64,000 nt of DNA from Candidatus Magasanikbacteria bacterium RIFCSPHIGHO2_01_FULL_41_23. Its GTDB lineage: Bacteria > Patescibacteriota > Patescibacteriia > Magasanikbacterales > UBA922. The stretch is from assembly GCA_001782805.1 (NCBI GenBank), contig MFPT01000021.1, positions 10,546 to 74,545 of the forward strand, in the 5' to 3' direction. The notes under the pieces were generated by a model, which saw nothing but the letters and a program-made list of their open reading frames with translations, ran no database searches and had not been told where the DNA came from. Positions 193 to 36,089 of the stretch are shown here, one piece after another. Made by a program: the position numbers and the translations under genes. The first letter of the stretch is position 1. Every line of letters begins with the position of its first letter.

Positions 193-3100
193 ATGAACTC
201 GCATCTCCGCTCCATGCTCGGACGACTGCAGTTATTGGCACAGAAAATTTGTCCCGCGTCGGGATCATCTTGGCGCACTCCGTGGATGGTATTTTTTGGT
301 ATATTGTTTTTGGGATTTTTTCTTTTAACCATTTCTCCGGCCAATGCTCAGTTCGAAACTGTAACCAATATTTTTATTATCGGCGCGGCGCATATTATGA
401 TTGTCGTCGCCAATATTGCCATTGGTTTAACTATTTTCTTTTTGCGTTTTTTCATCATGCTGGCCAGTTACAACAATTATATTGATGTTGACGTGGTGCA
501 ATTGGGCTGGATAATGGTGCGGGATGTGGCCAATATGTTTTTTGTCGTCGCGCTGTTGGTCATAGCCTTTGGCACTATTTTGGGTTTGGAAGAATATGAA
601 TGGAAAAAGAATTTGGTTAAACTTATTCTCGCCGCGATTTTAATTAATTTCAGCAATTTGATTTGCCAGCTGCTTATAGATGTTTCCCATGTTTTTAGCA
701 TTACTTTTTTGAATGCCATTTCGGCTACGGCCGGAGGCAATCTGATTAACATGTTCAAATTGGATCAAATAACGGCTTTGGCCGGTGCGGATGATACATC
801 GGGGATTGATATTGAATTGTTGGCCGCGGCTATACCGGCCATGATGTTCGCGCTTATGGCCGCGGCCGCGCTGGGATCATACGTGTATGTTATGGCGGCG
901 CGAGTGGTGGCATTGTGGGCTTTGATTATTTTTTCCCCGCTCGCTTTTATTTTTGGCGTTTTGCCCAAGACCAAAGGATATGCGGAAAAATGGTGGACTG
1001 AATTTAACAATAACATAATTGTCGTGCCGATAATGGTGTTTTTTTTGTGGCTGTCGTTTGCCACGTTGGGTTTGGGTAATATTGCGGAACAAATTCAAAC
1101 TGGTTTGCCCGCGGGTGTCCAGATAGATGGAGCGCAACAAGGTAAAACTGAATATAAGAAGACATCGTTATCATTATCCAAAGTAACCAGTTGGGAAAAT
1201 ATGGCCAGTTTTTTGGTTGCTTTTGCGTTTTTGATGCGCGGCATTCAAGAAACCGAACAAACCGGAGTTACTGGAGCCGGAGCCATCGGCTCGGCCGTGG
1301 ATTTTGCCAAAAAAGTCGGTACCATTGCCAGTGGGTATGCGGCGGGGAGATGGTTGGCGGGGAAGACGAGGGATGGAGTAGTTGGTGGATCCAAATGGGT
1401 GGGCAAAGAACTTGGTGTACATCTGGCCAAACGGGCCGGAGTTTACGATGTTCCCGAGCGAGTCGGTAATTGGTGGAAAGCCAGAGGCGTGGCATTTGAT
1501 AAACGAAGAAGCGAAGGTCCGCTTAGTGGTGTTGTCGATTCAAAAGAAGTAGGAGAAGGTGATCAAACTAAAGATGAAACGAAAAAATTGACCGATGAAC
1601 AAGTTAAGGCTGGTTGGTCAATGAGGTTTGATAGAGAAAAAAATAAAACTGTTGCCGAACAATGGGGTGTATTGAAAGATAAGGATGGAAATCCCAAATA
1701 CAAAAGTGGTTATCAAAAATTTCTCTCTCGTCGTCACGAAAAAATAATCGCTTCTCGCAAGACTTTGGAAAAAACCGAAGGAGAATTTAAAGATAATGAA
1801 GAATTAATGGGGAAGCGTACTGAGGCTCAGTCGTTTGTTACCGGTGCAGAAAGGAGAGAGAATAGAAAATTAGAAAAAGAAGGTTTTGTTGTCAAAGACT
1901 ATGATCGTGTCAAGCGTGGTATGCTTGAAATTGAAGAAGAACGGGCATCAGCAAAAACAGCCGAGTTTAAGAATAGAGGTAAAATGATTGCTCTTGGTAG
2001 CCAACGTCTAAAGGCAGAAGGAGGAAAACCTCTTGGTTTTCAAGAAGGCGGGACAGTTGCCGAGCAAATTGCGGGTCACAAAACCCGAGCGGAATTCTTT
2101 GAATCACGAGTTAACCAAATTCTCAAAACCGCAGAAAGTAAATATAAAGGCAGTGCAGCCGGTAAACGATTTTTGGAAGGAAAAATTCAAGCCGATTTGG
2201 AAATAAAGGCTCAAGAAGCAAAGACTAAAGAATTACAAGCAGGCGCCACGACGAGAATAGCTTTGACCGATACCACTGATGTTTTAGCGCGTACAATAGA
2301 GGCGGAAAAAGCCGCGCATTTAGAAGAACAAAGATTGGCAAGAGTCCAAAAAGCCGAAGAAAGAGAATTTTACAAAGGCGATCATGGCCAAGAAGAATTG
2401 CGTGAAGAAGCGGTTTTGAAAGAACAAATCGCGGCCAGTGAAGCGGGAATAAAAAAAGAAGAGGCTGAAGCCAAACGCGAAGTTGCTGAAGGTACAGGCA
2501 GTGGAGACGAAGCGAAAGAGCGAGAACACCTCTTTAAAGTAGCTCAAGACGAGAAAATCGCGGCGACAAAACAAGCAGGTGTTCGGGAATCTTTAGCGAC
2601 CAGTGTTGAAAAAAAGGCTGAATTGGTCTATGAGACATCAGACCCAGGTAAAGAAGAAAAAGAAAAAGAATTAACTGCCAAAGAAACCATTGCCGCCACC
2701 GAAGGAAAAATAAAGAAAGAAGAGGCTACTAGAAAAGCCGTACTTGCCACAGAAGACAGTAATGAATACAAGTTACAAATGGCGGAGAGGATTGCGGCGG
2801 AAAAAGGCGCAAAGTTGGAAGAGGGGAAGGTCGCGCTTGCAGAAAAAGAGGCCACCAAAGCGTATGTTTCTGGTACAGGTGCAGATACAATTACCCAAAC
2901 CAAAGAAGTTGAATTAAAAACAAAAGCCGAAGACGCGGAAATTAAACAACGTGAAGCCGAGGCAGACAGACAAGCGGCCAATAATTTAAAAGAAGTGTTT
3001 GCTAGAATCAATTTTTCGGAACAAGCAACAAAAGCGGCTGAAGATTTTGTAAAAAATATTAAAGAAGAAGACCTGAGAGATAAATTTAAATCAGCTTCTG

Positions 3101-5001
3101 AGCAAATGAAGGGATGGATGAAATTAGACGCCACGGCTTTGGCCACGGAAATTGAAAAATTTAAGACTGCCGGTCATACTCAAGGAATTGACGCGTATGT
3201 AGTGGCGTTGGGTCAAGCTCAATTGTTAAAAGTAACTACGAGTGATTCCGGTATTCGCCATAAACAAGCCGAGGATGCGGCGTCTGACGGTTTTGTGAAT
3301 AAATCTCGGTATGGAACCACTACTGCCTCAACTGCCTATTCTGATTTTTCCGATACCAAATTAAAGGATTATAAAAAACTGGAACGCACCGCCGCCATGA
3401 AAAAAGCCACCGATGTCCATGCTTTTTTAATGCACCAAAAAGAAAATTTGCCAGCGGGTCAAGAACTTGATCTTGATCAAACAGCGGAATTATATGCTGC
3501 CAGTTCTTATTTACAATCAGAAGCATGGAATGATGATCAGGCGGCGTATACATACTCTATGTTTGAAAAATTACAAAGACATCAAGCCGAAGTAGCGAAT
3601 AAAGGAAGTTCAACTGTCATGAAAACTGATGAAGCAGCACAGTGGACCACTATGGCGAAACAATATACTAGGTTGGGCTGGCTTGATAACAATGTTATTG
3701 ATGCTGGTGGTAATTTTGTATTGGATAATGAGAAAAAAGCAGATGGTACTGATGTCATTGATAAAACAAATGGAAAAGTAGTCAAAAAGGGGAAAGCCAT
3801 TGCCAAAAAATATACACGACAAAAAGCCGCGGATATGCAGAATTTAGCTGTTACAGGCGGTGATGTAAATTTAGTGGTTGCCCATCACCAAATTTCTGAA
3901 GCGGTTGATGCCAATGCTCGGGATGTTGAAAATGCTAAGCTTGAAGCAAGAAGTAGGATTATTGCGGATAAGAAAAGTGCTAATACAACATTAACAGACG
4001 AAACGGCCGCTGCATCGGCGGAAAAAGAAATTGAATCCGCAATGGCAGCTGCGGGTAAAGCTACAGCAAAAAATTATTGGGAATTGGCGGATGTTATTTT
4101 GAAATTAGGAACTAACACAACAGGCATCGTCGATGCTGCTGCTTTGAAAGTACGTTATGAAGAACATTCTGATTTGCTTCAAGACGCCACCAAATCATAC
4201 AAAGGTTTTGCACATGCCACCGGCCATGAAAAATTAGGTGGAAACCAAGGATTTGATGAAGAGGCTGATTCCTATCGTTTTATGACGGTAAGAGAGGGTC
4301 AGGCAGAAGTTCGGGCTGATCGGGTAAAAATGAAAACTCGCCAAATCTTAAATGGAGATCAGTATCATAGTAATGGTGGTGAATTAGATTTGGATACAGG
4401 GATAATTGATAATTTCTTGGAAGACACGCTTAATCTTACTATTGGTAAAATTACCCGATACCTTGATATGGTTGATATGCCTGAACGTTCTTTGAAAGGC
4501 GCGTTCTATTTACATAAAAATGAACAAGCAAAAGTAGTGCAAGGTACGGAAGGTGCTTTAAAAGATAAAAAAGTTGCGGTGTTGGGTGGAAATAAAGCCA
4601 TGCAAAAATTTGAAGCCGATGGTGATGTTGATGAAGAAAGTAAGACAAAGCATATGATGACACGTGGTGTTGTACCGGCTTTAATGTCAGGTCATAGAGG
4701 TTGGGCAGTCGCAGCCAGTAAATTATATGGCGGTCATGTTGTGGAGGCCGACGCTCAAAAAGGGACAATAAATATGCGGGTCGGTAATAAAGAATTTGCA
4801 ACTACGAAGAATGCGGCTGAACATGTTATTACTAATTTGGAATCAGATAAAGATTACTTTAAGGGTAGCGATCTTTATGGTCAAGAAAAAAGAATATTAG
4901 AGGCCATGAATCAGATTATCGCGGATTTTAATTCTGCACCTGCACCTGCATCTGCTGTTGATACTGCTGCTGCTGGTGAAGATGATACTCCTCCTACTTA
5001 A
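193..5001 (+). CDS. Giant polytopic membrane protein: N-terminal TrbL/VirB6-like multi-TM domain (~400 aa) plus a ~1200-aa K/E/A-rich low-complexity or coiled-coil C-terminal extension
   Basis: Uninterrupted 1602-codon ORF. The first ~330 aa carry 6-7 hydrophobic helices in a VirB6/TrbL-like layout. The rest is strongly biased to K, E, A, T and Q with EAK/KEE-type periodicity. It lies in one cluster with the PrgI-like and VirB4-like genes. Confidence 0.55.
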   Translation: MNSHLRSMLGRLQLLAQKICPASGSSWRTPWMVFFGILFLGFFLLTISPANAQFETVTNIFIIGAAHIMIVVANIAIGLTIFFLRFFIMLASYNNYIDVDVVQLGWIMVRDVANMFFVVALLVIAFGTILGLEEYEWKKNLVKLILAAILINFSNLICQLLIDVSHVFSITFLNAISATAGGNLINMFKLDQITALAGADDTSGIDIELLAAAIPAMMFALMAAAALGSYVYVMAARVVALWALIIFSPLAFIFGVLPKTKGYAEKWWTEFNNNIIVVPIMVFFLWLSFATLGLGNIAEQIQTGLPAGVQIDGAQQGKTEYKKTSLSLSKVTSWENMASFLVAFAFLMRGIQETEQTGVTGAGAIGSAVDFAKKVGTIASGYAAGRWLAGKTRDGVVGGSKWVGKELGVHLAKRAGVYDVPERVGNWWKARGVAFDKRRSEGPLSGVVDSKEVGEGDQTKDETKKLTDEQVKAGWSMRFDREKNKTVAEQWGVLKDKDGNPKYKSGYQKFLSRRHEKIIASRKTLEKTEGEFKDNEELMGKRTEAQSFVTGAERRENRKLEKEGFVVKDYDRVKRGMLEIEEERASAKTAEFKNRGKMIALGSQRLKAEGGKPLGFQEGGTVAEQIAGHKTRAEFFESRVNQILKTAESKYKGSAAGKRFLEGKIQADLEIKAQEAKTKELQAGATTRIALTDTTDVLARTIEAEKAAHLEEQRLARVQKAEEREFYKGDHGQEELREEAVLKEQIAASEAGIKKEEAEAKREVAEGTGSGDEAKEREHLFKVAQDEKIAATKQAGVRESLATSVEKKAELVYETSDPGKEEKEKELTAKETIAATEGKIKKEEATRKAVLATEDSNEYKLQMAERIAAEKGAKLEEGKVALAEKEATKAYVSGTGADTITQTKEVELKTKAEDAEIKQREAEADRQAANNLKEVFARINFSEQATKAAEDFVKNIKEEDLRDKFKSASEQMKGWMKLDATALATEIEKFKTAGHTQGIDAYVVALGQAQLLKVTTSDSGIRHKQAEDAASDGFVNKSRYGTTTASTAYSDFSDTKLKDYKKLERTAAMKKATDVHAFLMHQKENLPAGQELDLDQTAELYAASSYLQSEAWNDDQAAYTYSMFEKLQRHQAEVANKGSSTVMKTDEAAQWTTMAKQYTRLGWLDNNVIDAGGNFVLDNEKKADGTDVIDKTNGKVVKKGKAIAKKYTRQKAADMQNLAVTGGDVNLVVAHHQISEAVDANARDVENAKLEARSRIIADKKSANTTLTDETAAASAEKEIESAMAAAGKATAKNYWELADVILKLGTNTTGIVDAAALKVRYEEHSDLLQDATKSYKGFAHATGHEKLGGNQGFDEEADSYRFMTVREGQAEVRADRVKMKTRQILNGDQYHSNGGELDLDTGIIDNFLEDTLNLTIGKITRYLDMVDMPERSLKGAFYLHKNEQAKVVQGTEGALKDKKVAVLGGNKAMQKFEADGDVDEESKTKHMMTRGVVPALMSGHRGWAVAASKLYGGHVVEADAQKGTINMRVGNKEFATTKNAAEHVITNLESDKDYFKGSDLYGQEKRILEAMNQIIADFNSAPAPASAVDTAAAGEDDTPPT

Positions 5002-5022
5002 CAAATAATCTAGACTAATTTT

Positions 5023-6276
5023 ATGGATACTACACCATTAAAGAATCTGATTGATTGGTATAAAAAATATTCTCTAAGACAGGGAGAGACTTTTATATTG
5101 GAATTTTTTGAAAAATCAAAAAATAAGTCTGACTCTCCAGTGAATAATTTAGAAAAAATTATTCGTAGTCTGGTTGAATTTGTCACTGAATCAAAAAAAA
5201 ATCCGGAAGAATTCTTTTTATTTCCAAATGACAAAATCATTATTAGTAGTCTTGCGACCGTTGACAAAGATTATATCCATTCTGTTGTGCCAGTTATGTG
5301 GTATGGTCTTGGTTTGCAAACCGGAGATTATGATTTGTGGGAACCGGAACAGATTATCAAAGAATGTGAAGAGGTTTTTTCCGGCGCGGTTGATAATGTT
5401 CCGGTTCTTATACGCAACATCCGCGAAGTCGGAAAGAACGAGGATGCTATAAATTTTTGCCAGAAATTTATTAACCAGTTTATTCTGCTTGATAAATGCA
5501 CAATAATCACAGAATTAAATTGGCATAATTCTTTGATAATAGCGATTGCGCTTAATACGGTATATGAACGACTATATCAGCTTTCCGAAGACGAGCAAAA
5601 AATTATTCTTCAACACAGTCTTTATGTCGCTTTGTGCGCGGGCATCAATGTGCAAACGAGTCTGCAGGCTGTCTTGTATCACACCAAAACTATTTTTAGT
5701 TTTATTGCCACGTATGAACGACTGACACAGATTTTAGAAGAAAGTAATGAAACGGTGATTCAAATTAATGAAAATTCTATTCAAACTCTGGGGAGTTTGT
5801 GGAATGATTATTGTGAAAAAAATAAAAATGATTGGTCGGATATAAAAAAATTAAAATTTTTTTCTGACAGTCTGACAACCAATGAATTTCAGAAAGAAAA
5901 AATATTTGCAGGTTTTAAGATACTCCTTGATCTTAAGACAGCGGTTTTGCAACAAAAAAATTACAGTGATGATTATAATGAATCCGAAGAGTTTCGCAAT
6001 GATGTCATTAAATTAATTTTTTGGTTTGGAATCGGTGACGCCGGTTACGATGATCTAAAAAAATATTTTCAACAGACAGAAAAAAAAGTTTCTATTACTG
6101 CTTTTGTAAAAAGGCTAGTTGAAATTATTGGTCTACAAGATATGGAACAAATTGAAAATGTACTTCTTTTTTCTGGATTACTTCGCGAATTAAACTGGAT
6201 GCCGGAAGATGACAACTTAATCAGTTTCCACGAATCCACCTCCCAATTCCATTGGAATCAAGAATTATTATCCTAA
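5023..6276 (+). CDS. Hypothetical protein, paralog of the next gene
   Basis: 417-aa ORF. Segment EQKIILQHSLYVALCAGINVQTSLQAVLY aligns with EQQFILQHYFYYAIIMGVPVQSWLNVAF of the downstream ORF. A second shared block is WFGIGDAGYDD vs WYGNDAQGNQY. No recognisable family. Confidence 0.6.
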   Translation: MDTTPLKNLIDWYKKYSLRQGETFILEFFEKSKNKSDSPVNNLEKIIRSLVEFVTESKKNPEEFFLFPNDKIIISSLATVDKDYIHSVVPVMWYGLGLQTGDYDLWEPEQIIKECEEVFSGAVDNVPVLIRNIREVGKNEDAINFCQKFINQFILLDKCTIITELNWHNSLIIAIALNTVYERLYQLSEDEQKIILQHSLYVALCAGINVQTSLQAVLYHTKTIFSFIATYERLTQILEESNETVIQINENSIQTLGSLWNDYCEKNKNDWSDIKKLKFFSDSLTTNEFQKEKIFAGFKILLDLKTAVLQQKNYSDDYNESEEFRNDVIKLIFWFGIGDAGYDDLKKYFQQTEKKVSITAFVKRLVEIIGLQDMEQIENVLLFSGLLRELNWMPEDDNLISFHESTSQFHWNQELLS

Positions 6277-6277
6277 T

Positions 6278-7222
6278 ATGCCCGCTCCATTATTTTCCTA
6301 TTGCCAAAATAATCCGCTCAAAAATGTCTCTGCTTTGGAGCGGCTTATTATGGCAGTTGAGCCTAGTGCGATTACGGATACCGCGCTTAGTGGTGTCGTG
6401 GAATACGCGGCTTTGATTCTTTCCGGTTTGCGCGATTTGGAACCGCGCGGATTGGCCGACAGTTATGTTACGCAAGTTTTGGGATTTATTGACACAAAAC
6501 TTGTGGAGCAAGTGGCGACTGATCCAGCCAAATCCGCGAGTAATGATCTCAATGAATTGGCAGTGGAATTGCTCCACTCTGCGGCCGCGATTGGCGTGGT
6601 GGAAGAAATTACGCCGTATACGGTTGAAGAATTGACCGAGATTATCAACAGTTCTGACGTTGATTTTAATCATGCTATTTTGGCCTTCACTATTGGCTAC
6701 GCGATTGTGAGTGGAGAAAAAGATTATGGATCTCTATTAATGCACATTCTCATGAATCATAAAGATGAAGAATTGCAAACGCCATACGAATGGATGGATG
6801 CGTTTTTGCTCGGTTTATTAATTCATAGTGCGTGGAGTTATTTTCCCGATGCCACGGATCGTGAACAGCAATTCATACTCCAACATTATTTTTATTATGC
6901 CATTATCATGGGCGTGCCGGTACAAAGTTGGTTGAATGTGGCGTTTGCTGCCAATCCCAAATTATTGCCGCATATATTGATGCAAAAATTAAGCAGTTCG
7001 CAAGAAGTGATTCCGGAGAATTCCGGATTAAGCAGTAGTGCGGATTTTGCCAATGTCATACGCGATTATATGTCTGCAGTCAATCAAAATTCCATTCCCA
7101 CTTTGGCCGCGGAAAAATTTTTGGGCAAATGGTATGGCAATGACGCGCAGGGAAATCAATATCGTCTATGGTTGCGCGCCGCGCTTGGTACTGCCTATCG
7201 TTTGCAAACGCGGAATTTGTAA
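6278..7222 (+). CDS. Hypothetical protein, tandem paralog of 5023..6276
   Basis: 314-aa ORF starting 2 nt after the previous stop. Shares a ~60-aa conserved core with the upstream gene. Confidence 0.6.
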   Translation: MPAPLFSYCQNNPLKNVSALERLIMAVEPSAITDTALSGVVEYAALILSGLRDLEPRGLADSYVTQVLGFIDTKLVEQVATDPAKSASNDLNELAVELLHSAAAIGVVEEITPYTVEELTEIINSSDVDFNHAILAFTIGYAIVSGEKDYGSLLMHILMNHKDEELQTPYEWMDAFLLGLLIHSAWSYFPDATDREQQFILQHYFYYAIIMGVPVQSWLNVAFAANPKLLPHILMQKLSSSQEVIPENSGLSSSADFANVIRDYMSAVNQNSIPTLAAEKFLGKWYGNDAQGNQYRLWLRAALGTAYRLQTRNL

Positions 7223-7273
7223 TGCGATTTTTTTGTGATATACTTCAATTAATTTAATTTTAAAAGGAGGGAT

Positions 7274-7777
7274 ATGAATTACAATCAAAATAATTTTGCT
7301 TTTATTGACAGCCAAAATTTACATTTTGGAATTTTGGAACAAGGTTGGAAGATTGATTATCGAAAATTTCGTAATTATTTAAGGAATAAATACGATATTA
7401 CAAAAGTTTTTATGTTTATGGGGTATTTACCCTCAGAACAAGCTTTATATACATTTCTTAGACAATCAGGGTTTACGTTAATCTTCAAACATGTGTCTAA
7501 GTTACTTGACGGTTCGGTAAAAGGTAATTGCGACGGTGAGATGATTTTACAAGCTATGATAGAGTATCCGAATTATCACCAAGCTTTGCTCATTACAGGG
7601 GATGGGGATTTTGTATGTTTGATAAAATATTTACAAAAACAGAATAAATTGTTGCAAGTAATTGCTCCAACATTAGAAAATTGTTCTAAATTTATTCGTG
7701 AAGTTGCCGGTAAAAAATTATTGTTTTTTAACGATTTACAATCAAAATTGTCATATAAAGACAAAAAGACCCTATAA
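7274..7777 (+). CDS. NYN-domain (LabA-like / DUF88) putative RNase
   Basis: Motifs FIDSQNL near the N-terminus, GNCDGEMI and ITGDGDF match the PIN-like NYN domain acidic residues. AGGAGG RBS 6 nt upstream of the ATG. Confidence 0.65.
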   Translation: MNYNQNNFAFIDSQNLHFGILEQGWKIDYRKFRNYLRNKYDITKVFMFMGYLPSEQALYTFLRQSGFTLIFKHVSKLLDGSVKGNCDGEMILQAMIEYPNYHQALLITGDGDFVCLIKYLQKQNKLLQVIAPTLENCSKFIREVAGKKLLFFNDLQSKLSYKDKKTL

Positions 7778-7887
7778 AGACAAAACAGTATAGGGGCATT
7801 CTTGCTGGGAAGGACCATACAAAGACAAAACAGTGTACAGGATATTCCCTCATGATTACTTTCTAAAGTATACAACACTACAAATAG

Positions 7888-8922
7888 TTGTCAAGCCAAG
7901 TTATGCCCAATCAACCCACAATTCTCGTAAAAAAATCCGACGGAACGACAATCCGGATGACTCTTGACGAAGTCAAAAAAATGAAGGCGGAGAAAAAAGC
8001 AGATAATCCTTTGTTGCCACAAGAATTAGAGACAGCACCAGAAACAGTGATCAAAAAAGCTGTGGAAATGTTAAAAACTCCGGAATTGGAACCGGCACCA
8101 GTGGAATTTTTATTAAAAGCCAGCGCCGAGCCACATCTTTTGCATGAAGAAATAGAATCGCACGAAGTTACCAGACCGGAATTAGTGACCGCGGTTTCGT
8201 ACGATCGCACGGTTGACGCCGTGCTTAAAAATGCTCGCTTAACTCCGAGTCCGGAACTAATGCCGCGATTTCAGTCACTCATTATGTCGCTTATAAAAGG
8301 CGTGCGTACTGTGGCGCAAGTAATGGAATACGCGAGCGCGCCGCTTCTGCGCGGAGGTTTGGCACTTTCGATCGCCGAGGCAGAACGTCTTGCCACGGCT
8401 TTGAACACACAAACCGGTTTGCCCAATAACCGATCGATTATTATTCCCAAACCCATGACTGCGCCTGCCTCCACGCCCTCAAACATTCAGGGATCAGTCA
8501 AAAATAATCCAACTTCAAATCGTCCTCACAACACAGGCGCGGCTTTTGTCCAAATGCATGATGTGCAAGCGCCGCAGTCCGCGCCAAGCACAAGCAATAA
8601 AGCAGTCATGGGTCCTATAGAAGAAATGAAAATTTTTTCTCTCCTTGATTGGCGTCGTCTCGCGGCTACGCCGGATAAAGCCAAAGAAATAATTTTAAGT
8701 AAATTTTCCGGCTGGAAAGATGAATCATTTTTTTTGTATCGTGATACCAGATTGGCCTGGTTGGAATCGCCATTGGTGCGCGAATATCAAGAAAAAGTTA
8801 TCACTGCCATCAATCAAAGTACGCGTTTGTCTGATATGGCTTCCGGATTTGCGGTGAAAAAAACCCTGACACCGGCTGACATTGCCGCGCTCGTTGAAGT
8901 GAATAGGGTACTTGCGGTATAA
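7888..8922 (+). CDS. Hypothetical Pro/Ser/Ala-rich protein
   Basis: 344-aa ORF in the same orientation inside the T4SS-like cluster. No recognisable motifs. Confidence 0.5.
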   Translation: MSSQVMPNQPTILVKKSDGTTIRMTLDEVKKMKAEKKADNPLLPQELETAPETVIKKAVEMLKTPELEPAPVEFLLKASAEPHLLHEEIESHEVTRPELVTAVSYDRTVDAVLKNARLTPSPELMPRFQSLIMSLIKGVRTVAQVMEYASAPLLRGGLALSIAEAERLATALNTQTGLPNNRSIIIPKPMTAPASTPSNIQGSVKNNPTSNRPHNTGAAFVQMHDVQAPQSAPSTSNKAVMGPIEEMKIFSLLDWRRLAATPDKAKEIILSKFSGWKDESFFLYRDTRLAWLESPLVREYQEKVITAINQSTRLSDMASGFAVKKTLTPADIAALVEVNRVLAV

Positions 8923-8956
8923 TACTCCTACGGCCATGTAATCAAATTTTTACCGC

Positions 8957-9385
8957 ATGCAACAATTTGTTGTTCCACAATTTATTGAAGTGGAAGATAA
9001 AATTTTCGGGCCGATTACGACTCGGCAATTTTTAATTTTATTGGCCGCGGGCACAGCCATATTTTTGTCGTATCGGTTTGGCGATTTGGCTTTATTTATT
9101 TTTACGGTTGTTTTTGTCGGCGGTTTTTCCGCGATTTTGGCTTTTGTAAAAGTGAATGGTCAAAATTTTCATTATTTTTTGCTGAATATTATACAAACCA
9201 TGCGCAAACCATCATTGCGCATTTGGCAAAAAAGTTACAATAAAGAAGAACTGAATTATTTGCGCAAGCGCGATGCCGATATTAAAATAGAGCCGCTCAT
9301 CGTGGTCACAGCAGTAAAAAAAGATCGGATTCGCGACTTGGCTCTGTTGGTTAATACGGGCGGTTTTTACAAGCCCGAGGAATAG
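8957..9385 (+). CDS. PrgI-family (VirB3-like) small membrane protein of Gram-positive-type conjugation / T4SS systems
   Basis: The N-terminus VPQFIEVEDKIFGPITTRQFLILLAAG matches the PrgI-family signature (VPK..ee.KIFG.T.RQ followed by two TM helices). It lies immediately upstream of the VirB4-like ATPase, as PrgI lies upstream of PrgJ. Confidence 0.65.
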   Translation: MQQFVVPQFIEVEDKIFGPITTRQFLILLAAGTAIFLSYRFGDLALFIFTVVFVGGFSAILAFVKVNGQNFHYFLLNIIQTMRKPSLRIWQKSYNKEELNYLRKRDADIKIEPLIVVTAVKKDRIRDLALLVNTGGFYKPEE

Positions 9386-9403
9386 CGCGCGTTCACCATA
9401 AAT

Positions 9404-10093
9404 ATGTCTGACGAAAAAATGAGAAAAAAAACCAAAAAACGGCCTTCATCACAGGCTCATTTGCCCATCGCGGAAATCAAAGACAGCGTGGTGATTTTAA
9501 AAGACGGCACATTGCGCGCGGTTATTTTGGTTTCCAGTTTGAATTTTGCTCTAAAATCCGAAGATGAACAAAATGCGATTATTTCCGCGTACGTTGGTTT
9601 TCTTAATTCACTGGATTTTCCAATTCAAATTGTAGTCCAATCGCGCAAATTGCAAATCAAACCCTATTTGGAAAAATTGCAGGGGATTGAACGGACACAA
9701 ACCAATGAATTGTTGCGCATCCAAACCGCGGATTATCGCGCGTTTGTGGAAGAGTTGGTGGAGATCGGGCAGATTATGACCAAACGTTATTATGTCATTG
9801 TGCCCTATGATCCGCTGAATAATCGGCGCAAGAATTTTTGGGCACGATTTAAAGAAGCGCTTAAACCGGGAATTACCATTCGTTTGCGTGAAGAGCGATT
9901 TCAGACACGCAAAAGTGAAATTGATTTGCGTTTGCGTCACATTATTGGCGGACTGTCCGGCATGGGACTCACCACAGTTCAGCTGGATACGCAATCTTTG
10001 ATTGAATTATATTATTCCACTTACAATCCGGATATCGCTTTTGCCGAAACATTGGGCACGATTGGCGATCTCCAAATTGAAGATATTTCATAA
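9404..10093 (+). CDS. VirB4/TraC-type ATPase, N-terminal domain (separate ORF; frame differs from the ATPase domain ORF)
   Basis: IKDSVVILKDGTLRAVILVSSLNF resembles the conserved N-terminal 'IxDGiixtkdGslxrvievepin' region of VirB4/TrbE/PrgJ. The stop at 10093 is followed 2 nt later by the ATG of the ATPase-domain ORF in another frame. Confidence 0.55.
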   Translation: MSDEKMRKKTKKRPSSQAHLPIAEIKDSVVILKDGTLRAVILVSSLNFALKSEDEQNAIISAYVGFLNSLDFPIQIVVQSRKLQIKPYLEKLQGIERTQTNELLRIQTADYRAFVEELVEIGQIMTKRYYVIVPYDPLNNRRKNFWARFKEALKPGITIRLREERFQTRKSEIDLRLRHIIGGLSGMGLTTVQLDTQSLIELYYSTYNPDIAFAETLGTIGDLQIEDIS

Positions 10094-10095
10094 GT

Positions 10096-11955
10096 ATGCC
10101 ATTTAAACCCATTGCCACCAATAAAAAAGGAATCAGTTCGGCAGCGCCGGACATTGAGAAAAAAAAACTGCAAAAAGAATTGATTACTTTGGAAGAAGAA
10201 CGGGTGTATCGCGAAGGCACGGTGGCCATTCGCGATTTGGTCGCGCCGTCCGCACTATCGGTTCAGTCCAATTTTGTGCAATTGGGCACGACTTTTTTGC
10301 GTACGATTTTTGTGATTACGTATCCGCGTTATATGTCAGTCGGCTGGAGTTCGCCGATTTTAAATTTAAATTTGACCATGGATTTGGCTATGTTTTTTTA
10401 TCCGGTCAATTCGGAAATTATTTTAAAACAGCTCAAGAAAAAAGTTGGCGCGCTGGAAGCGCAATTGTCCGGTGACGCGGAAAAAGGCGCGGCGCGTGAT
10501 CCGTTGCGCGAAACTGCTTTGCGCGATATTGAACAACTGCGCGATGATTTAACGCAAGGCGTGGAACATTTTTTTCAATTTGCTTTTTACGTTACGCTTT
10601 ACAGCCAAGACAAAAAAGAATTGGATAAAGTTACGGAAGACATTCAGAATATTTTTGGTTCCAAATTAATTTACAGCAAAAATGTTTTGTATCAGGCCGA
10701 ACAAGGTTTTACTTCAACGTTGCCGCTGGGGATTGATGAGTTGACGATTTCTTTTAACATGAATTCCTCGCCGATCGCGGCCTCGTTTCCGTTTATTTCC
10801 TCGGAATTAAGCAGTGATGATGGAATTTTGTATGGCATCAATCGCCATAATAACAGTTTAATTTTGTTTGATCGTTTTTCTTTGCAAAATGCCAATATGG
10901 TGGTTTTTGCCACTTCCGGAGCGGGAAAATCTTATGCTATTAAATTGGAAGTTTTGCGTAGTTTAATGATGGGAACTGACGTGATTGTGATTGATCCGGA
11001 AATGGAATATGAGCATTTGGCCGAGGCGGTTGGCGGAACTTATATCAGTATTTCTTTGGCTTCGGAAAGCAAAGTCAATCCGTTTGATTTGCCGCGTCCG
11101 GTTGGTCAGCAAATTTCCACCGAAGATATTATTCGCAGCGCAGTAATTACGATGAAAGGTTTGTTGCGGATTATGTTTGGCACACTGACGCCGCAGGAAG
11201 ATTCAATTTTGGATCGCGCGCTTTTGGAAACGTACGCGAAAAAAGACATTACAGCTACAGTTGATCTGACCACAGTCGAGCCGCCGATTATGCAGGATTT
11301 GCTGGATATTTTGGAAGGCATGACGGGCGCGGAAGTATTGGTTTTAAAATTGCGCAAATATACCGAAGGCACGTTTGCCGGATTATTCAATTCTCCGACC
11401 AATGTGAATGTGACCAATCAATTGGTTATTTTTAGCGTGCGTGATTTGGAAGATGAATTGCGGCCAATGGCGATTTATACGTTGGTGAATTATATTTGGA
11501 ATTTAGTTCGTTCCGAACAAAAACGGAGAATTTTGATTATTGATGAAGCGTGGTGGCTTATGAGTCACGAGGATTCGGCCAAATTCATTTACGCGCTCGT
11601 GAAGCGTTGTCGCAAATATTATTTGGGTGTGACGACCATTACCCAGGATGTGAATGATTTTTTACGTTCGCCATACGGACAGGCGATTGTAACCAATTCG
11701 GCTTTGCAACTTTTGCTCCGTCAATCACCCGCGGCCGTGGATATGATTCAACGCGTGTTTATGTTGACCGAAGGAGAAAAATATTTGCTTTTGGAAGGCG
11801 CGGTCGGTGAAGGCATATTTTTTGCCGGCAATAAACACGCGGCCATCAAAGTCGTGGCGTCTTATACCGAAGATCAACTCATCACGTCTGATCCCAAACA
11901 ATTATTGGAAATTGAAAAAGCCAAAAAAGAATTTGAAGAACAAATGGGAAAATAA
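10096..11955 (+). CDS. virB4: VirB4/TrbE/PrgJ-like T4SS ATPase, central and C-terminal ATPase domains
   Basis: Walker A VVFATSGAGKSYAIK and Walker B ILIIDEAWWLM. The architecture resembles VirB4/CagE/TraC. Together with the upstream ORF it gives ~848 aa, a typical VirB4 length. Confidence 0.75.
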   Translation: MPFKPIATNKKGISSAAPDIEKKKLQKELITLEEERVYREGTVAIRDLVAPSALSVQSNFVQLGTTFLRTIFVITYPRYMSVGWSSPILNLNLTMDLAMFFYPVNSEIILKQLKKKVGALEAQLSGDAEKGAARDPLRETALRDIEQLRDDLTQGVEHFFQFAFYVTLYSQDKKELDKVTEDIQNIFGSKLIYSKNVLYQAEQGFTSTLPLGIDELTISFNMNSSPIAASFPFISSELSSDDGILYGINRHNNSLILFDRFSLQNANMVVFATSGAGKSYAIKLEVLRSLMMGTDVIVIDPEMEYEHLAEAVGGTYISISLASESKVNPFDLPRPVGQQISTEDIIRSAVITMKGLLRIMFGTLTPQEDSILDRALLETYAKKDITATVDLTTVEPPIMQDLLDILEGMTGAEVLVLKLRKYTEGTFAGLFNSPTNVNVTNQLVIFSVRDLEDELRPMAIYTLVNYIWNLVRSEQKRRILIIDEAWWLMSHEDSAKFIYALVKRCRKYYLGVTTITQDVNDFLRSPYGQAIVTNSALQLLLRQSPAAVDMIQRVFMLTEGEKYLLLEGAVGEGIFFAGNKHAAIKVVASYTEDQLITSDPKQLLEIEKAKKEFEEQMGK

Positions 11956-14416: not shown

Positions 14417-14722
14417 ATGAAACAAATTTGGGATAAATTAAAAGAACATGACAAGCGATTTGACCAGATTGATGGTCAAATTGATTTTTTGGCCATTAAA
14501 GTGTTGGAACATGACGATAGGTTGCAAAGAATTGAAGAAAATATGGCAACCAAAGCCGATTTGCGGACAATTTCCGATACTCTTGATAAATTAGTCGGAT
14601 TAGCCCTCAAAAAAGATCAGGAAGTAACTTTTTTGACCCATAGTGTAAAAGGGTTATGGAATAAATTTGAAGAGTATGATCTAGATATAAAGCAAATGAA
14701 ATTATTGTTAGAATTAGGTTAA
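14417..14722 (+). CDS. Hypothetical small coiled-coil protein
   Basis: 101-aa ORF with heptad-like charged/hydrophobic periodicity. No known motif. Confidence 0.4.
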   Translation: MKQIWDKLKEHDKRFDQIDGQIDFLAIKVLEHDDRLQRIEENMATKADLRTISDTLDKLVGLALKKDQEVTFLTHSVKGLWNKFEEYDLDIKQMKLLLELG

Positions 14723-14783
14723 GAGAAATAAAAAAATAATAGGTTAAATAAATTAACACCTTGGATGGTGTTAATTTTATGGC

Positions 14784-14873
14784 TGGCGGAGAGGGAGGGA
14801 TTCGAACCCTCGAGGGATTTGACTCCCTGCAGCTTTAGCAAAGCTGTACGATCGGCCACTCTGACACCTCTCC
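14784..14873 (-). tRNA. tRNA-Ser (anticodon GCU), class II long variable arm, CCA encoded
   Basis: The reverse complement folds as GGAGAGG..T-arm GGTTCGAATCC..CCTCTCC-G-CCA. Anticodon loop UUGCUAA. Long variable arm and G73 discriminator. Confidence 0.8.
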
Positions 14874-14930
14874 ATTTTTTATTTTTTTTGCTTGCTCTGA
14901 GCGATCCCGACATAGTCGGGAGAGTCGAAG

Positions 14931-15019
14931 GGCGGAGAGATAGAGATTCGAACTCTAGAGGCTCTTGCGAGCCCGGCAGTTTAGTAAACTGCTGCCTTAA
15001 ACCACTCGGCCATCTCTCC
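14931..15019 (-). tRNA. Class II (Ser-type) tRNA with atypical anticodon loop UUACUAA (apparent anticodon ACU); CCA not encoded
   Basis: GGAGAGA-U-GGCCGAGUGGUUUAAGGC-A-GCAGU-UUACUAA-ACUGC-long arm-UAGAG-UUCGAAU-CUCUA-UCUCUCC-G. The body closely parallels the adjacent tRNA-Ser(UGA). Its loop differs from the tRNA-Ser(GCU) loop only by A at position 34. Confidence 0.55.
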
Positions 15020-15094
15020 ATAAATTCTGATATTGTGGGCTTGCCCTGAGCGAGCGACTTGTGGTGAGCGGAGTCGAAACCAAGCGAGTCGAAG

Positions 15095-15183
15095 GGCGGA
15101 GAGAGTGAGATTCGAACTCACGGAGGACTTGCATCCTCAACAGTTTTCAAGACTGTCGCCTTAAACCACTCAGCCATCTCTCC
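15095..15183 (-). tRNA. tRNA-Ser (anticodon UGA), class II
   Basis: GGAGAGA-U-GGCUGAGUGGUUUAAGGC-G-ACAGU-CUUGAAA-ACUGU-long arm-GUGAG-UUCGAAU-CUCAC-UCUCUCC-G. Confidence 0.8.
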
Positions 15184-15282
15184 AGAACTTTATCCTATAA
15201 ACAGAAAAACTATAGCAAAATTAAGTATTTTTCGCAAGTGTATTGTGCCGTGATTTTTGCCATGATATACTCAAGTTGAACT

Positions 15283-15735
15283 ATGGCTCAACACATAAAA
15301 AAAAGTTATTTGCTTCCATTAGTTAAAAATTTTGTTGAACCTGATTATAGCTTGGCTCAAACCTGGCCATTTGGTGATGAACATTGGAGCACGGCGGAAA
15401 CCGAAGGTAAATTGGCAGTTGACGTAATTGAAACCGAAACATCCATCATTGTAATTACCACTATTGCCGGAGCCCGCTTGGAAGCAATCGAAGTTTTTGC
15501 CCACAATGATATAATTACTATTCGTGGTCGTCGTGATGCTCCTATTGCAGTCGAAGACGGAGTTGAATTTATTCATACTGAATGTTTTTGGGGACCGTTT
15601 TCCCGAACCATTGTTTTGCCCGCGGAAATTAAAGCCGAACAAGCGCGCGCTGAATATAAAAATGGCGTGTTGACAATTCGCATTCCCAAGCGTAAAGTTG
15701 ATACCAAGATTTCCGTAAAAATTATTGAGGAATAA
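15283..15735 (+). CDS. Hsp20 / alpha-crystallin family small heat-shock protein
   Basis: Alpha-crystallin domain pattern: KLAVDVIETETSIIVITTIAGARLEAIEVFAHNDIITIRGRR ... NGVLTIRIPK. Confidence 0.8.
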   Translation: MAQHIKKSYLLPLVKNFVEPDYSLAQTWPFGDEHWSTAETEGKLAVDVIETETSIIVITTIAGARLEAIEVFAHNDIITIRGRRDAPIAVEDGVEFIHTECFWGPFSRTIVLPAEIKAEQARAEYKNGVLTIRIPKRKVDTKISVKIIEE

Positions 15736-30784: not shown

Positions 30785-30856
30785 GCACCCGTCGTTCAAT
30801 GGATAGGACAAGAGTTTGCGGAACTCTAGATCTAAGTTCGATTCTTAGCGGGTGCA
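30785..30856 (+). tRNA. tRNA-Arg (apparent anticodon GCG)
   Basis: GCACCCG-UC-GUUC-AAUGGAUA-GGAC-A-AGAGU-UUGCGGA-ACUCU-AGAU-CUAAG-UUCGAUU-CUUAG-CGGGUGC-A. A20 in the D-loop. Preceded by the hairpin GCGTTTTACCGCG..CGCAAAACGC. Confidence 0.6.
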
Positions 30857-30901
30857 CCGATTATTATTGATTTGTTCTGACGTATTCAAGAAGTTCGCAC
30901 A

Positions 30902-32962: not shown

Positions 32963-33030
32963 GGTATATTTGCTCATATATCTTCCGTTTGATACACTAA
33001 GTAACGGTTTTATTTTTGGTTTAGTTTTTT

Positions 33031-34464
33031 ATGAATTCCATTCCGATCGCTTTAACCTACGATGATGTTTTAATTGTGCCGCGACGTTCCGGTCTTAATT
33101 CACGCAGTGAAGCCGTGACAACAACGCGGTTAACCAAGAAAATAAATTTGCATATTCCATTGGTCAGCGCGAATATGGACACGGTGACTGAATCGCAAAT
33201 GGCGATTGCGTTGGCGCGATTGGGCGGGATTGGAATTTTGCATCGCTTTATGACGATTGAAGAAAATATCGAAGAAGTAAAACGAGTTAAGCGCGCGCAA
33301 AATTTTGTGGTTCGCGATCCATACAGCATTGATCCGAATAAAACAATTGGTCAAGCCAAAGAATTTATTGCCAAATGCGGTGTAACGGGTTTGGTAGTGG
33401 CGAATGATGATGGACGTTTGCACGGGATTCTTTCGCGTCGAGATATGATGTTTGCGGAAAATGACCACGCACTTGTTTCGGAAATTATGACGCCGCGTGC
33501 CAAATTAATTGTGGGTGTTCCATCAACCACATTTGAAGAAGCCAAAAATATTTTTGCGCAAAATAAAATAGAAAAATTGCCGCTTGTGGATGAAGACAAT
33601 AAAATTATTGGTTTAATTACCAGTGATGATATTCGGTTGAGGATTGATTATCCATTGGCTAATACTGATGAGAAAGGCAATCTTTTGGTGGGCGCTTCAA
33701 TTGGCGTGAAAGGGGATTATATTGAGCGCGCGCAAGAATTAATTAAAGCCGGAGTGGATGTGCTGGTGATTGATATTGCGCACGGACACTCGGATTTAAT
33801 GTTTGACGCGATTAAAAATGTTCGCGCGGCTTGCACAGATGTGCAATTGATTGCAGGTAATATCGCGACAAGCGGAGCGGCGCAAGAATTATGTGAAGCC
33901 GGAGTTGATGGTTTAAAAGTGGGAGTGGGTCCGGGAACAATTTGCATTACTCGTTTGGTGACCGGATGTGGCGTGCCGCAATTATCCGCGGTGATGAATG
34001 TGGCCGCGACCGCACAAAAATATAATGTTCCGGTAATTGCGGACGGAGGAATTCAAAAATCCGGTGATATTGTAAAAGCGATTGGTGCGGGTGCGGATAC
34101 GGTTATGCTGGGCGGATCTTTGGCTGGAACACATGAAAGTCCCGGTCTGATAATTAATCGCGATGGCAAGAAATATAAAGTTTGCCGCGGTAGCGCCAGT
34201 TTTGCGATTGCTGAACGTAGGCAAAAAGTGGGGCAAGAAAAAAAGGAAATGAATGAAGTTACGCCAGAAGGCGTGGAAGCAGTTGTGCCGTATAAAGGGT
34301 ATTTGGCGGAAATTGTCGGTCAATTTATTGGTGGTTTAAAATCAGGGATGAGCTATACCAATTCGCGAACGATTGGTGAATTGCAAAAAAATTGTGATTT
34401 TGTGCGGATTACGAACGCGGGTTTGCGCGAAAGCGGGCCGCATGATTTGCAGGATGTGCGCTAG
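33031..34464 (+). CDS. guaB: Inosine-5'-monophosphate dehydrogenase (IMPDH) with CBS pair
   Basis: TIM-barrel IMPDH motifs IDIAHGHS and GVGPGTICITRLVTGCGVPQLSAV (catalytic Cys loop). Two CBS domains in the middle. Confidence 0.9.
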   Translation: MNSIPIALTYDDVLIVPRRSGLNSRSEAVTTTRLTKKINLHIPLVSANMDTVTESQMAIALARLGGIGILHRFMTIEENIEEVKRVKRAQNFVVRDPYSIDPNKTIGQAKEFIAKCGVTGLVVANDDGRLHGILSRRDMMFAENDHALVSEIMTPRAKLIVGVPSTTFEEAKNIFAQNKIEKLPLVDEDNKIIGLITSDDIRLRIDYPLANTDEKGNLLVGASIGVKGDYIERAQELIKAGVDVLVIDIAHGHSDLMFDAIKNVRAACTDVQLIAGNIATSGAAQELCEAGVDGLKVGVGPGTICITRLVTGCGVPQLSAVMNVAATAQKYNVPVIADGGIQKSGDIVKAIGAGADTVMLGGSLAGTHESPGLIINRDGKKYKVCRGSASFAIAERRQKVGQEKKEMNEVTPEGVEAVVPYKGYLAEIVGQFIGGLKSGMSYTNSRTIGELQKNCDFVRITNAGLRESGPHDLQDVR

Positions 34465-34527
34465 AACTTGAATAAACTAGAAGCTGAATAACTATTTAAG
34501 ACTAAAAACAATTAATTTTTTTGGTGA

Positions 34528-34561
34528 GGGGGCTCCGACTTCATGTCGGAGCCCCCTTTTT
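34528..34561 (+). terminator. Strong rho-independent terminator after guaB (12-bp GC stem plus T5)
   Basis: GGGGGCTCCGAC-TTCAT-GTCGGAGCCCCC followed by TTTTT. Confidence 0.7.
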
Positions 34562-34580
34562 GTTCTTCCTCCTTTCTTCG

Positions 34581-34820
34581 CTAGGCGAAGTTCCCGTAGT
34601 AGCTCATGACGTGACCGAAGCCTCCGCGTGGCGAAGCGCGTCGGTGATGCTCGTTGTCGTCAGATCCCCCCTTCTTCTTAGGGGGATCCACGATCGGCGA
34701 CCGGTTTGTGGACAGGCTCCGCGGCGGACGGTAGGGGGTTCCATCGGCCGAGGGGATGTCCTCGGCACGTCGGAGGGGGTTTCCCTTGTCATCCAGCGTC
34801 GCGGCACGAAATCTTTCCAT
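34581..34820 (-). CDS. Hypothetical small basic protein encoded in the GC-rich island
   Basis: 80-aa ORF on the minus strand (MERFRAATLDDKGNPLRR...KKKGGSDDNEHHRRASPRGGFGHVMSYYGNFA). GC content far above the genome background. The coding call is uncertain. Confidence 0.25.
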   Translation of the reverse strand: MERFRAATLDDKGNPLRRAEDIPSADGTPYRPPRSLSTNRSPIVDPPKKKGGSDDNEHHRRASPRGGFGHVMSYYGNFA

Positions 34821-35033
34821 GGTCAATGATCCTTGTGTCCCGACTTCGTCGGGACGGTTTGAGATGAAGAAGATTATAAATAATTGTGATGCTTTTGTCA
34901 ATAATTTTAGGCTAAAAAATTTTAAAAAAATGTTCGGTTTGACTTTTTTGCTTTTTTATTTTATTCTTTGAACAGATTGTTTTAATTTGGCTGAACAATG
35001 AGGGGTTGTTTGGTCAACTAAGGGGTTTTTTCA

Positions 35034-35231
35034 ATGAAGGTTTTGATGGTCACCCTGACTACCAAGAACAGCCGTGGAGAGGACATCCATTTCTCGATCT
35101 CGAAGGAGGGCGCGCGGGAGGCCGGAATCCTCCCTGATTCTCGATCCTGGGATCGTGCCCAGGGTGTCTCGGCGGGAAACCGCCAGTACATGAAGCGCCT
35201 CGTTCGTCGACTCGACGAGATCGGATCGTAA
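35034..35231 (+). CDS. Hypothetical small protein in the second GC-rich segment
   Basis: 65-aa ORF (MKVLMVTLTTKNSRGEDIHF...). GC-rich. A terminator follows at 35378-35405. The coding call is uncertain. Confidence 0.25.
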   Translation: MKVLMVTLTTKNSRGEDIHFSISKEGAREAGILPDSRSWDRAQGVSAGNRQYMKRLVRRLDEIGS

Positions 35232-35377
35232 GCGATCCGAACCAACGCCGTTGATTCGCCGCCACTCGCGGATCCGGCACGATCGTTCTTCATCAAGTAG
35301 CCCACCAGTTTCTGTCCCACCTTTGTTCCTTCCTCGGGCTCAGACTTCACGTCCGAGCCCTCCCACCAAAATTAAAA

Positions 35378-35405
35378 CTCTCCGAGATTGTCGGAGGGTT
35401 TTTTT
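35378..35405 (+). terminator. Rho-independent terminator
   Basis: CTCTCCGA-GATTG-TCGGAGGG hairpin followed by TTTTTTT. Confidence 0.55.
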
Positions 35406-35642
35406 ATGACAATAAATACATCAAGGAAATCAATTTAAATCGAATCAATTTAAGTCGACTTAAAATAAATCAAATCAACATGAATTTCAGTAATAGGTAA
35501 TTTTCTTTTCAGTAAAACTCGCTATTCTTCTCCTCTCCTCGTCTCTATCCTTATTGATATATTAAATCTACTTTAACCAAGTAAGCGGAAAGAAAGCTCG
35601 TACACATTACTAAAAAGAAAATTACCTACTACTGAAATTACC

Positions 35643-35900
35643 CCAATGCAACACCGAAAAATTTAATATACCTAATAAGCAAACTGGAGTGAGATCTTTT
35701 TCTCGATGCCCGAGCCTGTTTACCCTGAGCTTGTCGAAGGGTCGAGGGTCGAGAAAAACGGTCTCACGAAGTTTGCTTAAGACTTAGAAAGCTGAGTATA
35801 ATGACTTGTTAAGAATGCATAATCCGTTAGACTATCAGTTGAACAAAAGGATATCGTCGAATTTTGTTTAAGACTTAGAAAATGGAGTTTGCTTATGAGC
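35643..35900 (+). repeat. Copy 2 of the ~200-nt dispersed repeat (see 11957..12150), carrying a ~65-nt internal insertion of the short GC-rich repeat family
   Basis: Blocks align with copy 1 at ~85-90% identity. Extra segment ..GCCCGAGCCTGTTTACCCTGAGCTTGTCGAAGGGTCGAGGGTCGAG.. is inserted between the first two blocks. Confidence 0.7.
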
Positions 35901-36089
35901 AAACAAAGCATGAATTTTGATTACAATTTGGCATATAAAAAATATAAAAGTCCAGTGTTTACCGGACTTTTATATGACACGTAGAAGTTTTGCCAATGAA
36001 GCACTGGCTCACTACCCTTTAATGTAAATTATATCAAGATTTATTATTTTGTCAAATAAAAAACACAACGAGAAGTTGTGATTTTTAGG

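Follow-up and report, generated by a model that had tools for sequence, protein, structure and literature searches.

Introduction

The serine codons AGU and AGC are read in bacteria, as a standard, by tRNA-Ser(GCU). Anticodons that begin with A (ANN) are nearly absent, above all from the two-codon boxes, and why this should be so is an open question. In tRNA-Arg(ACG) the gene-encoded A34, followed by C35, lies in the loop CUACGAA and is converted by TadA to give ICG, within a four-codon box. Other natural A34 tRNAs of four-codon boxes are the tRNA-Thr(AGU) of Mycoplasma and the Leu(AAG) and Thr(AGU) tRNAs of Lactobacillales, which misread synonymously and replace the GNN gene (PMC8007984; bioRxiv 10.64898/2026.05.15.725136).

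Split-box ANN anticodons, except that of Ile, have been described as ‘universally missing’, with all ANN anticodons missing in archaea (Ehrlich et al. 2021, PMC8007984); a review also states that phages are without the ANN tRNAs that bacteria lack. Seven of the split-box ANN anticodons are listed as ‘universally absent’ by Raval et al. (2026, bioRxiv 10.64898/2026.05.15.725136), and across the 4,047 bacteria of GtRNAdb two-codon-box ANN genes are only sporadic (bioRxiv 10.64898/2026.05.15.725136). ANN tRNAs have been built artificially in E. coli to learn why they are missing (bioRxiv 10.64898/2026.05.15.725136). Engineered E. coli tRNAs with the anticodon ACU proved active and nearly AGU-specific; their authors took a natural counterpart to be absent or only sporadic (PMC11066159; bioRxiv 10.64898/2026.05.15.725136).

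Here we describe a natural gene with this anticodon, in a 64-kb stretch of DNA (64,000 nucleotides, hereafter the window) from Candidatus Magasanikbacteria, one of the ultra-small groundwater bacteria of the CPR. We show that it is a genuine gene, recovered reproducibly, conserved among relatives and under structural constraint. It resembles bacterial tRNA-Ser(GCU) in its class-II body, G73, t6A-type context (U36, A37), UU...AA loop frame and codon box, but has A34 in place of G34, and would read AGU by Watson–Crick pairing and AGC probably not. With tRNA-Arg(ACG) it has in common the encoded A34 and C35, but its box is split and its loop lacks G36. Like the other four-codon-box A34 tRNAs it is bacterial, carries a genomic A34 and has persisted over evolutionary time; in contrast to them, it serves a split Ser/Arg box and coexists with the GNN gene. 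Its form, a tRNA gene in a tRNA operon, is ordinary. What is unusual is the anticodon, and it belongs to a widespread class for which we found no description: none of a natural prokaryotic tRNA-Ser(ACU) in the searchable full-text literature, a scope outside which most subscription journals lie, and no mention of ACU in the text and available supplements of a 2026 tRNA-gene study of 95 complete Patescibacteria genomes. The ACU genes themselves are already present in public records.

Results

The ACU gene lies in the middle of a serine tRNA array

Of the five tRNA genes that ARAGORN calls in the window, three form the array. These three, each on the minus strand, are tRNA-Ser(tga) (15094-15184), tRNA-Ser(act) (14930-15020) and tRNA-Ser(gct) (14784-14873). 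Together with the Rfam tRNA model (RF00005), these calls confirm the original prediction of three class-II tRNA-Ser genes arranged head-to-tail on the minus strand, with GCU and UGA outermost, and the gene-finder check that it had suggested returns tRNA-Ser(act) for the middle gene. Its reading of the middle loop as UUACUAA, with the anticodon ACU, was also correct, the loop being closed by a 5-bp stem GCAGT/ACTGC; the wobble base, however, had been placed at about 14976, and A34 is at 14985. The array comprises the following features.

15209-15237, minus strand: promoter-like TTGCGA, 17-nt spacer, TG-TATAGT (TTGCGA-17-TGnTATAGT), about 25 nt upstream of the UGA gene; consensus scan
15097-15183, minus strand: tRNA-Ser(UGA), first gene of the array; ARAGORN, Rfam 59.3 bits
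15020-15096, minus strand: spacer 1, which starts with CCCTTCGACTC and includes TCGCTCAGGGCAAGC, both common to spacer 2; sequence comparison
14933-15019, minus strand: tRNA-Ser(ACU), middle gene, class II, with a 6-bp variable-arm stem, G73 and the loop UUACUAA; ARAGORN, Rfam 54.5 bits, orthologs, covariation
14983-14985, minus strand: anticodon A34-C35-U36, with A34 at 14985; sequence, the same in five independent assemblies
14874-14932, minus strand: spacer 2, homologous to spacer 1 at both ends; sequence comparison
14787-14873, minus strand: tRNA-Ser(GCU), third gene, with a weak D stem (TCA...CGT); ARAGORN, Rfam 41.7 bits
14784-14786, minus strand: encoded CCA directly 3' of tRNA-Ser(GCU); sequence
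14746-14774, minus strand: hairpin TTAACACC-ATCCAA-GGTGTTAA followed by TTTATTT, likely intrinsic terminator of the array; seen in the sequence

The three genes probably form one transcription unit served by one promoter, as their layout suggests. Because the consensus scan returned no more promoter-like sites than it did in shuffles, it is by position that the site at 15209-15237 is identified; a TATAAT-like box occurs at the matching place upstream of the arrays in relatives L014 and L015. The hairpin at 14746-14774 received no call in the consensus scan. A trailer, GCCCTTCGACTC, had been described after each of the tRNAs. It follows the UGA and ACU genes (two matches, with none expected by chance), whose spacers also share TCGCTCAG(G/A)GCAAGC, whereas the GCU gene is followed by its CCA and the hairpin instead.

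All three genes score above the Rfam gathering score of 29 bits, and the ACU gene, with a full-length match (1-71), outscores its GCU neighbour (54.5 against 41.7 bits). In its 5' part it reads GGAGAGA-TG-GCC-GAGTGGTTTAA-GGC-A-GCAGT-UUACUAA-ACTGC; an 18-nt variable arm follows, and then TAGAG-TTCGAAT-CTCTA-TCTCTCC-G. Its loop of seven nucleotides has U33, A34-C35-U36 and A37, and with U at both positions 32 and 36 it is not of the tRNA-Arg(ACG) type (U33-A34-C35-G36). All stems are intact, and the gene displays none of the marks of a pseudogene (broken stems, a low score, a lack of conservation). The 18-nt variable region forms a 6-bp stem, five pairs of which are 99–100% canonical across the ACU family and the sixth, which closes the loop, 68%.

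The identity set of E. coli SerRS consists of G1-C72, G2-C71, A3-U70, C11-G24, the long variable arm and G73. Each of these four pairs, as well as G73, is present in the ACU gene of the window and is nearly invariant across the family.

The D stem of tRNA-Ser(GCU) is conserved but poorly paired (TCA...CGT, one Watson–Crick pair) in many CPR, for example at loci L015, L025 and L108. Unlike many of these GCU genes, the ACU paralog, a separate and old one in the CPR, always has a canonical D stem, GCY/RGC.

The AGN codons keep their standard meaning

The 40 long ORFs of the window contain 238 AGU, 144 AGC, 77 AGA and 24 AGG codons, AGU being the commonest serine codon. Set against translated relatives, the AGU and AGC codons of these ORFs fall mostly opposite Ser, just like the UCN codons. 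The counterparts of AGA are CGN (71%) or AGR (12%), with Ser codons making up at most 1%; those of AGG are Arg or Lys (60%) and, in 3%, Ser. The meaning of the AGN box is therefore standard in this genome. In invertebrate mitochondria AGR codons specify Ser, and we considered a similar reassignment of AGA and AGG here; the codon alignments rule it out.

The comparison of AGU with AGC that had been suggested at the outset does come out in favour of AGU, but the AGU share of AGY (0.62) is below the U-ending share in the other two-codon boxes (0.74–0.86), so that nothing in the codon usage points to a particular need for AGU.

Predicted decoding by an unmodified A34

From the sequence we consider it probable that the middle gene encodes a functional tRNA-Ser(ACU), acting as an AGU-specific Watson–Crick reader beside GCU, with A34 unmodified. 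A substitution at position 34 carries no penalty in charging by SerRS, an enzyme that leaves the anticodon unread, whereas the synthetases for Asn, Asp, His, Tyr, Phe and Cys do use it; this difference may be the reason why ACU is the two-codon-box ANN anticodon seen here. SerRS would charge the tRNA through its long variable arm, acceptor stem and G73, the anticodon going unread. A34 would then pair with U in Watson–Crick fashion to read AGU, and the neighbouring tRNA-Ser(GCU) would remain necessary for AGC. An orthogonal ACU tRNA in E. coli provides a precedent: AGU was decoded at 9.4% and AGG at 0.36%, with AGC and AGA below detection, and inosine was detected in only three of the 15 A34 tRNAs sequenced, which may or may not include ACU (PMC11066159).

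A34 would most likely stay adenosine, because CPR use tRNA-Arg(GCG) for CGY and reportedly have neither TadA nor inosine, and because the loop is without the UACG motif that TadA recognises. In the window, tRNA-Arg(GCG) at 30785-30858 (plus strand) stands in for the usual bacterial ACG, as it does at the same place in relatives L014, L256 and L257, and ARAGORN found no tRNA-Arg(ACG), either in the window or at any of the listed genome and synteny loci. This fits the published finding that CPR lack tRNA-Arg(ACG) and inosine wobble (Shulgina and Eddy, PMC8629427). The premise that A34 is confined to tRNA-Arg(ACG) thus agrees with the literature but not with this organism. Among the genome and synteny loci listed, tRNA-Ser(ACU) is the sole A34 tRNA, as judged from the ARAGORN tables by eye rather than by formal tally.

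A tRNA in which A34 becomes inosine or is otherwise modified would read AGU and AGC and, with inosine, AGA as well. We regard this as improbable, despite the two-codon-box tRNA-Phe(AAA) of E. coli, which became IAA (bioRxiv 10.64898/2026.05.15.725136), and despite some carriers, such as Planctomycetota and enterobacteria phages, which probably live with TadA. The loop UUACUAA has U36, whereas the natural TadA substrate tRNA-Arg(ACG) has G36. TadA of E. coli was very specific for the anticodon and loop of tRNA-Arg2 (PMC11066159). The window and its relatives use tRNA-Arg(GCG), in line with the reported lack of tRNA-Arg(ACG) in CPR (PMC8629427), and no deaminase domain was found among the ORFs of the 64-kb window. 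Moreover, GCU is kept beside ACU in most of the listed CPR loci (within 8 kb in about 58 of the 85 CPR-type loci), where it would be redundant if I34 read AGC, and AGA is in use, aligned with Arg codons. The misreading of AGA after deamination, against which the original prediction had warned, is unlikely here on the same grounds: CPR without inosine wobble (PMC8629427), no G36, and AGA aligning with Arg.

Conservation at the locus

Relatives of the locus were fetched through the neighbouring VanW protein, with the anticodon no part of the selection. All three loci with DNA (VanW identity 73%, 59% and 56%) carry tRNA-Ser(ACU) beside hsp20, so the variant recurs at the same site in related genomes, a further check that had been proposed. 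One locus (L015) has the full order promoter-ACU-GCU-UGA; in another (L014), as read from the sequence, GCU follows ACU and the contig then ends. All four genomes (the window and the three VanW-syntenic relatives) have the same anticodon arm, GCAGCAGTTTACTAAACTGC, and no part of the ACU gene varies less in relatives not chosen by anticodon; it is only in these three relatives that conservation of the anticodon is tested free of selection bias. The variable arm differs among the four genomes by compensatory changes (GGGCTC/GAGCCT, GTCCT/AGGAC, GTCCGC/GTGGAC and GTCCCC/GGGGAC), and the T stem likewise. Three remoter syntenic Magasanikbacteria loci (VanW identity 42–47%) have GCU and UGA only, with no ACU at the site, and the ACU gene is therefore not universal at this position.

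The constancy of the anticodon arm bears on whether the tRNA, though charged with Ser, might be mainly non-decoding, either as an aminoacylation donor for the cell wall or lipids or as a regulatory RNA. In Gram-positive bacteria, peptidoglycan synthesis is known to involve non-proteinogenic isoacceptors. The neighbouring gene here encodes a VanW/PG-binding protein, and a review has proposed non-canonical roles for ‘missing’ tRNAs (PMC8007984). Such a role is nevertheless improbable, slightly more so than a modified A34. The anticodon arm is the part that varies least; the gene's two companions in the array are ordinary Ser tRNAs that serve decoding; this anticodon also occurs in the tRNA arrays of phages, for which a supplement to decoding is the usual interpretation; and no transferase of the Fem/MprF type was seen in the 64-kb window.

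It is very improbable that the ACU gene is a pseudogene, or a paralog in decay, of one of the Ser tRNA genes beside it. In favour of this reading, a single mismatch separates its first 26 nt from those of the neighbouring UGA gene, and both have trailer sequences in common. Against this, the Rfam score is above that of the GCU gene with all stems intact, the gene is kept in the VanW-syntenic relatives with compensatory changes, its D-loop variant occurs in the ACU genes of many other species, and covariation is strong family-wide, with which the decaying-paralog option of the original prediction falls. Across 82 distinct 87-nt ACU sequences, canonical cloverleaf pairs make up 98.2%, against 37–51% when partners are shifted, and most cloverleaf pairs occur as two to six pair types.

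In CPR-type loci, identity is 78% between ACU genes, 63% between ACU and GCU genes (64% at the same locus) and 69% between ACU and UGA genes, and for all 85 CPR-type ACU genes listed the nearest neighbour in sequence is another ACU gene. ACU genes being closest to one another, the gene is an old paralog, usually located near tRNA-Ser(GCU) in the CPR, and not a recent G-to-A mutation of the local GCU gene. Nor does the described closeness of its body to the UGA copy make it a recent derivative of that gene. A hybrid produced by recombination between UGA and ACU genes was also considered, in view of the near-identical 5' halves, and was dropped because the D loop GAGTGGTTTAAGGC is found in ACU genes of many other species too.

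Three independent assemblies (ENA ERZ4903070, JGI 3300002529 and NCBI GCA_001782895.1) agree base for base over the 601 bp of 14700-15300, the same three Ser tRNA genes recur in two further ENA assemblies, and the anticodon is ACU wherever the array is assembled. A sequencing or assembly error, G34 misread as A, was among the options first put forward; although the array is hard to assemble, the agreement of these five assemblies and the recurrence of the ACU anticodon in hundreds of unrelated genomes reduce it to a negligible prospect. The contigs of several assemblies (L004, L005, L009, L011, L013 and L014) start or end inside the array, from which we take the region to be difficult to assemble; short-read assembly appears to be disrupted by the resemblance of the tRNA genes and by their common trailers.

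Distribution in genomes, metagenomes and phages

tRNA-Ser(ACU) is common in the CPR and in phages. GTDB species genomes and IMG/VR viral contigs were scanned with a pattern made up of a Ser D loop, YTACTAR and a T loop; as ACU and parts of the D and T loops were required, those columns are conserved by construction. In the GTDB species genomes at least 120 loci match, and 119 of the 120 listed hold an ARAGORN tRNA-Ser(act). The listed genome loci, the three VanW-syntenic relatives and the window together yield 103 distinct ACU sequences. By record title, the listed CPR carriers include Magasanik-, Paceibacteria/Parcubacteria, Yanofsky-, Taylor-, Nomura-, Kaiser- and Levyibacteria, Minisyncoccia and the RAAC4_OD1_1 genome. 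The other carriers listed are 20 Planctomycetota, three Verrucomicrobiota, a few Proteobacteria and five MAGs labelled ‘archaeon’. Of the three options first put forward, that of a real isoacceptor is the one supported, but the tRNA is not lineage-specific: it extends over many CPR classes, Planctomycetota, Verrucomicrobiota, ‘archaeon’ MAGs and many phages.

The roughly 20 Planctomycetota listed (L018, L024, L045, L069, L078, L088, L099 and others) are mostly of 50–69% GC. Their tRNA-Ser(ACU) genes fall into two sequence types, with no GCU within 8 kb among the matches listed. Near-identical copies of one of these types recur in MAGs with different labels, pointing to a mobile element or to mislabelled bins. 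The five ‘archaeon’ MAGs (L041, L051, L063, L079 and L081; 29–43% GC, from groundwater) have ACU genes whose acceptor stem, GCAGAGG or GCTGAGG, differs from that of the bacterial genes; the neighbouring proteins on these contigs were examined and do not settle an archaeal origin. Many TPA assemblies labelled ‘uncultured Gammaproteobacteria’ or ‘uncultured Candidatus Saccharibacteria’ (L019, L020, L036, L037, L042, L059, L133 and others) carry Magasanikbacteria-type tRNAs, the ACU gene of L133 being identical to that of the window, and the taxon labels on these loci are probably wrong. A few of the listed hits, for example in Polynucleobacter, have imperfect acceptor stems and may be partial copies. 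tRNA-Ile(UAU) genes are present in several CPR loci (L043, L064, L070, L106, L108, L126 and L134).

At least 120 viral loci of IMG/VR match the pattern. Every one of the 120 listed (L261-L380) has a tRNA-Ser(act), in 104 distinct sequences, usually within a tRNA array (median five tRNAs per locus) and with GCU alongside in a single locus. A BLAST search of cultured phages with the window tRNA gave, among the matches checked, UGA or GCU Ser tRNAs; with a viral ACU sequence as the query, however, we reached a cultured jumbo phage, Salmonella phage 7t3 (L384), whose tRNA-Ser(ACU) at MK773491.1 329274-329364 is annotated only as ‘tRNA-Ser’. The phage tRNAs resemble the window gene in anticodon, loop and class-II body, but differ in being carried in phage arrays, almost always without GCU, and in having hosts that probably possess TadA. 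Their frequency in viral contigs and their occurrence in phage 7t3 stand against the statement in the review that phages are without such ANN tRNAs.

In Pseudomonas phage PhiPA3 (L383) a class-II tRNA at HQ630627.1 294661-294749 is annotated ‘tRNA-Thr, codon recognized ACU’, next to a tRNA-Cys. ARAGORN calls these two tRNAs Ser(tga) and Thr(tgt), and the labels are probably an annotation error.

In metagenomes, a scan that kept the same anticodon stem but left the anticodon free gave ACT in 30 of the 120 Ser tRNAs listed. This pattern is not specific for the paralog (among the matches listed GCT occurred 40 times, TGA 38, ACT 30, CGA 12 and AGA once), so it shows only that ACU is common in metagenomes. 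The single AGA, at L139, belongs to a class-II tRNA-Ser from a metagenome and places A34 in the UCN box.

Implications of a natural split-box ANN tRNA

We lean, with some reserve, towards the broader proposition that tRNA-Ser(ACU) with an unmodified A34 is an ancient, selectively maintained isoacceptor of the CPR, paralleled in ‘archaeon’ MAGs, Planctomycetota and many phages. If this is true, it would provide the first known case of a natural split-box ANN tRNA persisting across whole lineages, and the ‘forbidden’ class would be viable when the synthetase ignores the anticodon and, in the CPR, when there is no A-to-I deaminase. The observations suggest a simple rule, in which the exception open to evolution is ACU, since its synthetase, SerRS, disregards the anticodon and since the CPR are reportedly without the deaminase that would make A34 misread AGA. 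The window gene and hundreds of related genes, including one in a cultured Salmonella phage, are natural cases in which the near-absence of A-initial anticodons can be studied directly.

Other features in the window

A further tRNA, of 77 nt, lies at 36090-36166 on the minus strand. ARAGORN calls it ‘Ser(tga)’, yet its variable arm is short, and its acceptor stem GGGCCTG/CAGGTCC, with G3:U70 and A73, has the alanine identity set. Its anticodon region can be drawn either as a 5-bp stem with a 9-nt loop, CCUUGACAC, or as a 7-nt loop CUUGACA closed by a C31-C39 mismatch and with C at position 37. It matches a tmRNA model below threshold (30.7 bits). Neither RadA synteny nor BLAST revealed a homolog in the fetched loci, and in the relatives the corresponding site is without a tRNA.

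In relatives L256 and L257 RadA lies next to RecG, whereas the window has about 3.4 kb of extra DNA between them (32963-36357), which looks like an insertion. It contains an IMP dehydrogenase-like gene (33031-34464), then about 1.6 kb without a long ORF, and the odd tRNA. The 1.6-kb part has GC-rich patches and small ORFs at 34581-34901 (minus strand, 106 aa) and 35034-35231 (plus strand, 65 aa); similar GC-rich DNA with small ORFs is found in the same RadA-RecG gap of L256.

At 57546-62366 (plus strand) the gene for the DNA polymerase III alpha subunit is split by an intein with a LAGLIDADG endonuclease domain. Near the start of the window, 193-11955 (plus strand) looks like a type-IV-secretion-like cluster: a 1602-aa ORF and the two ORFs after it have no Pfam match, and a NYN-domain protein and a TraG-like ATPase come next. 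In relatives the ORFs preceding the TraG-like ATPase are recorded as PrgI and TraC-like. ComFC-like and RadC genes follow the cluster.
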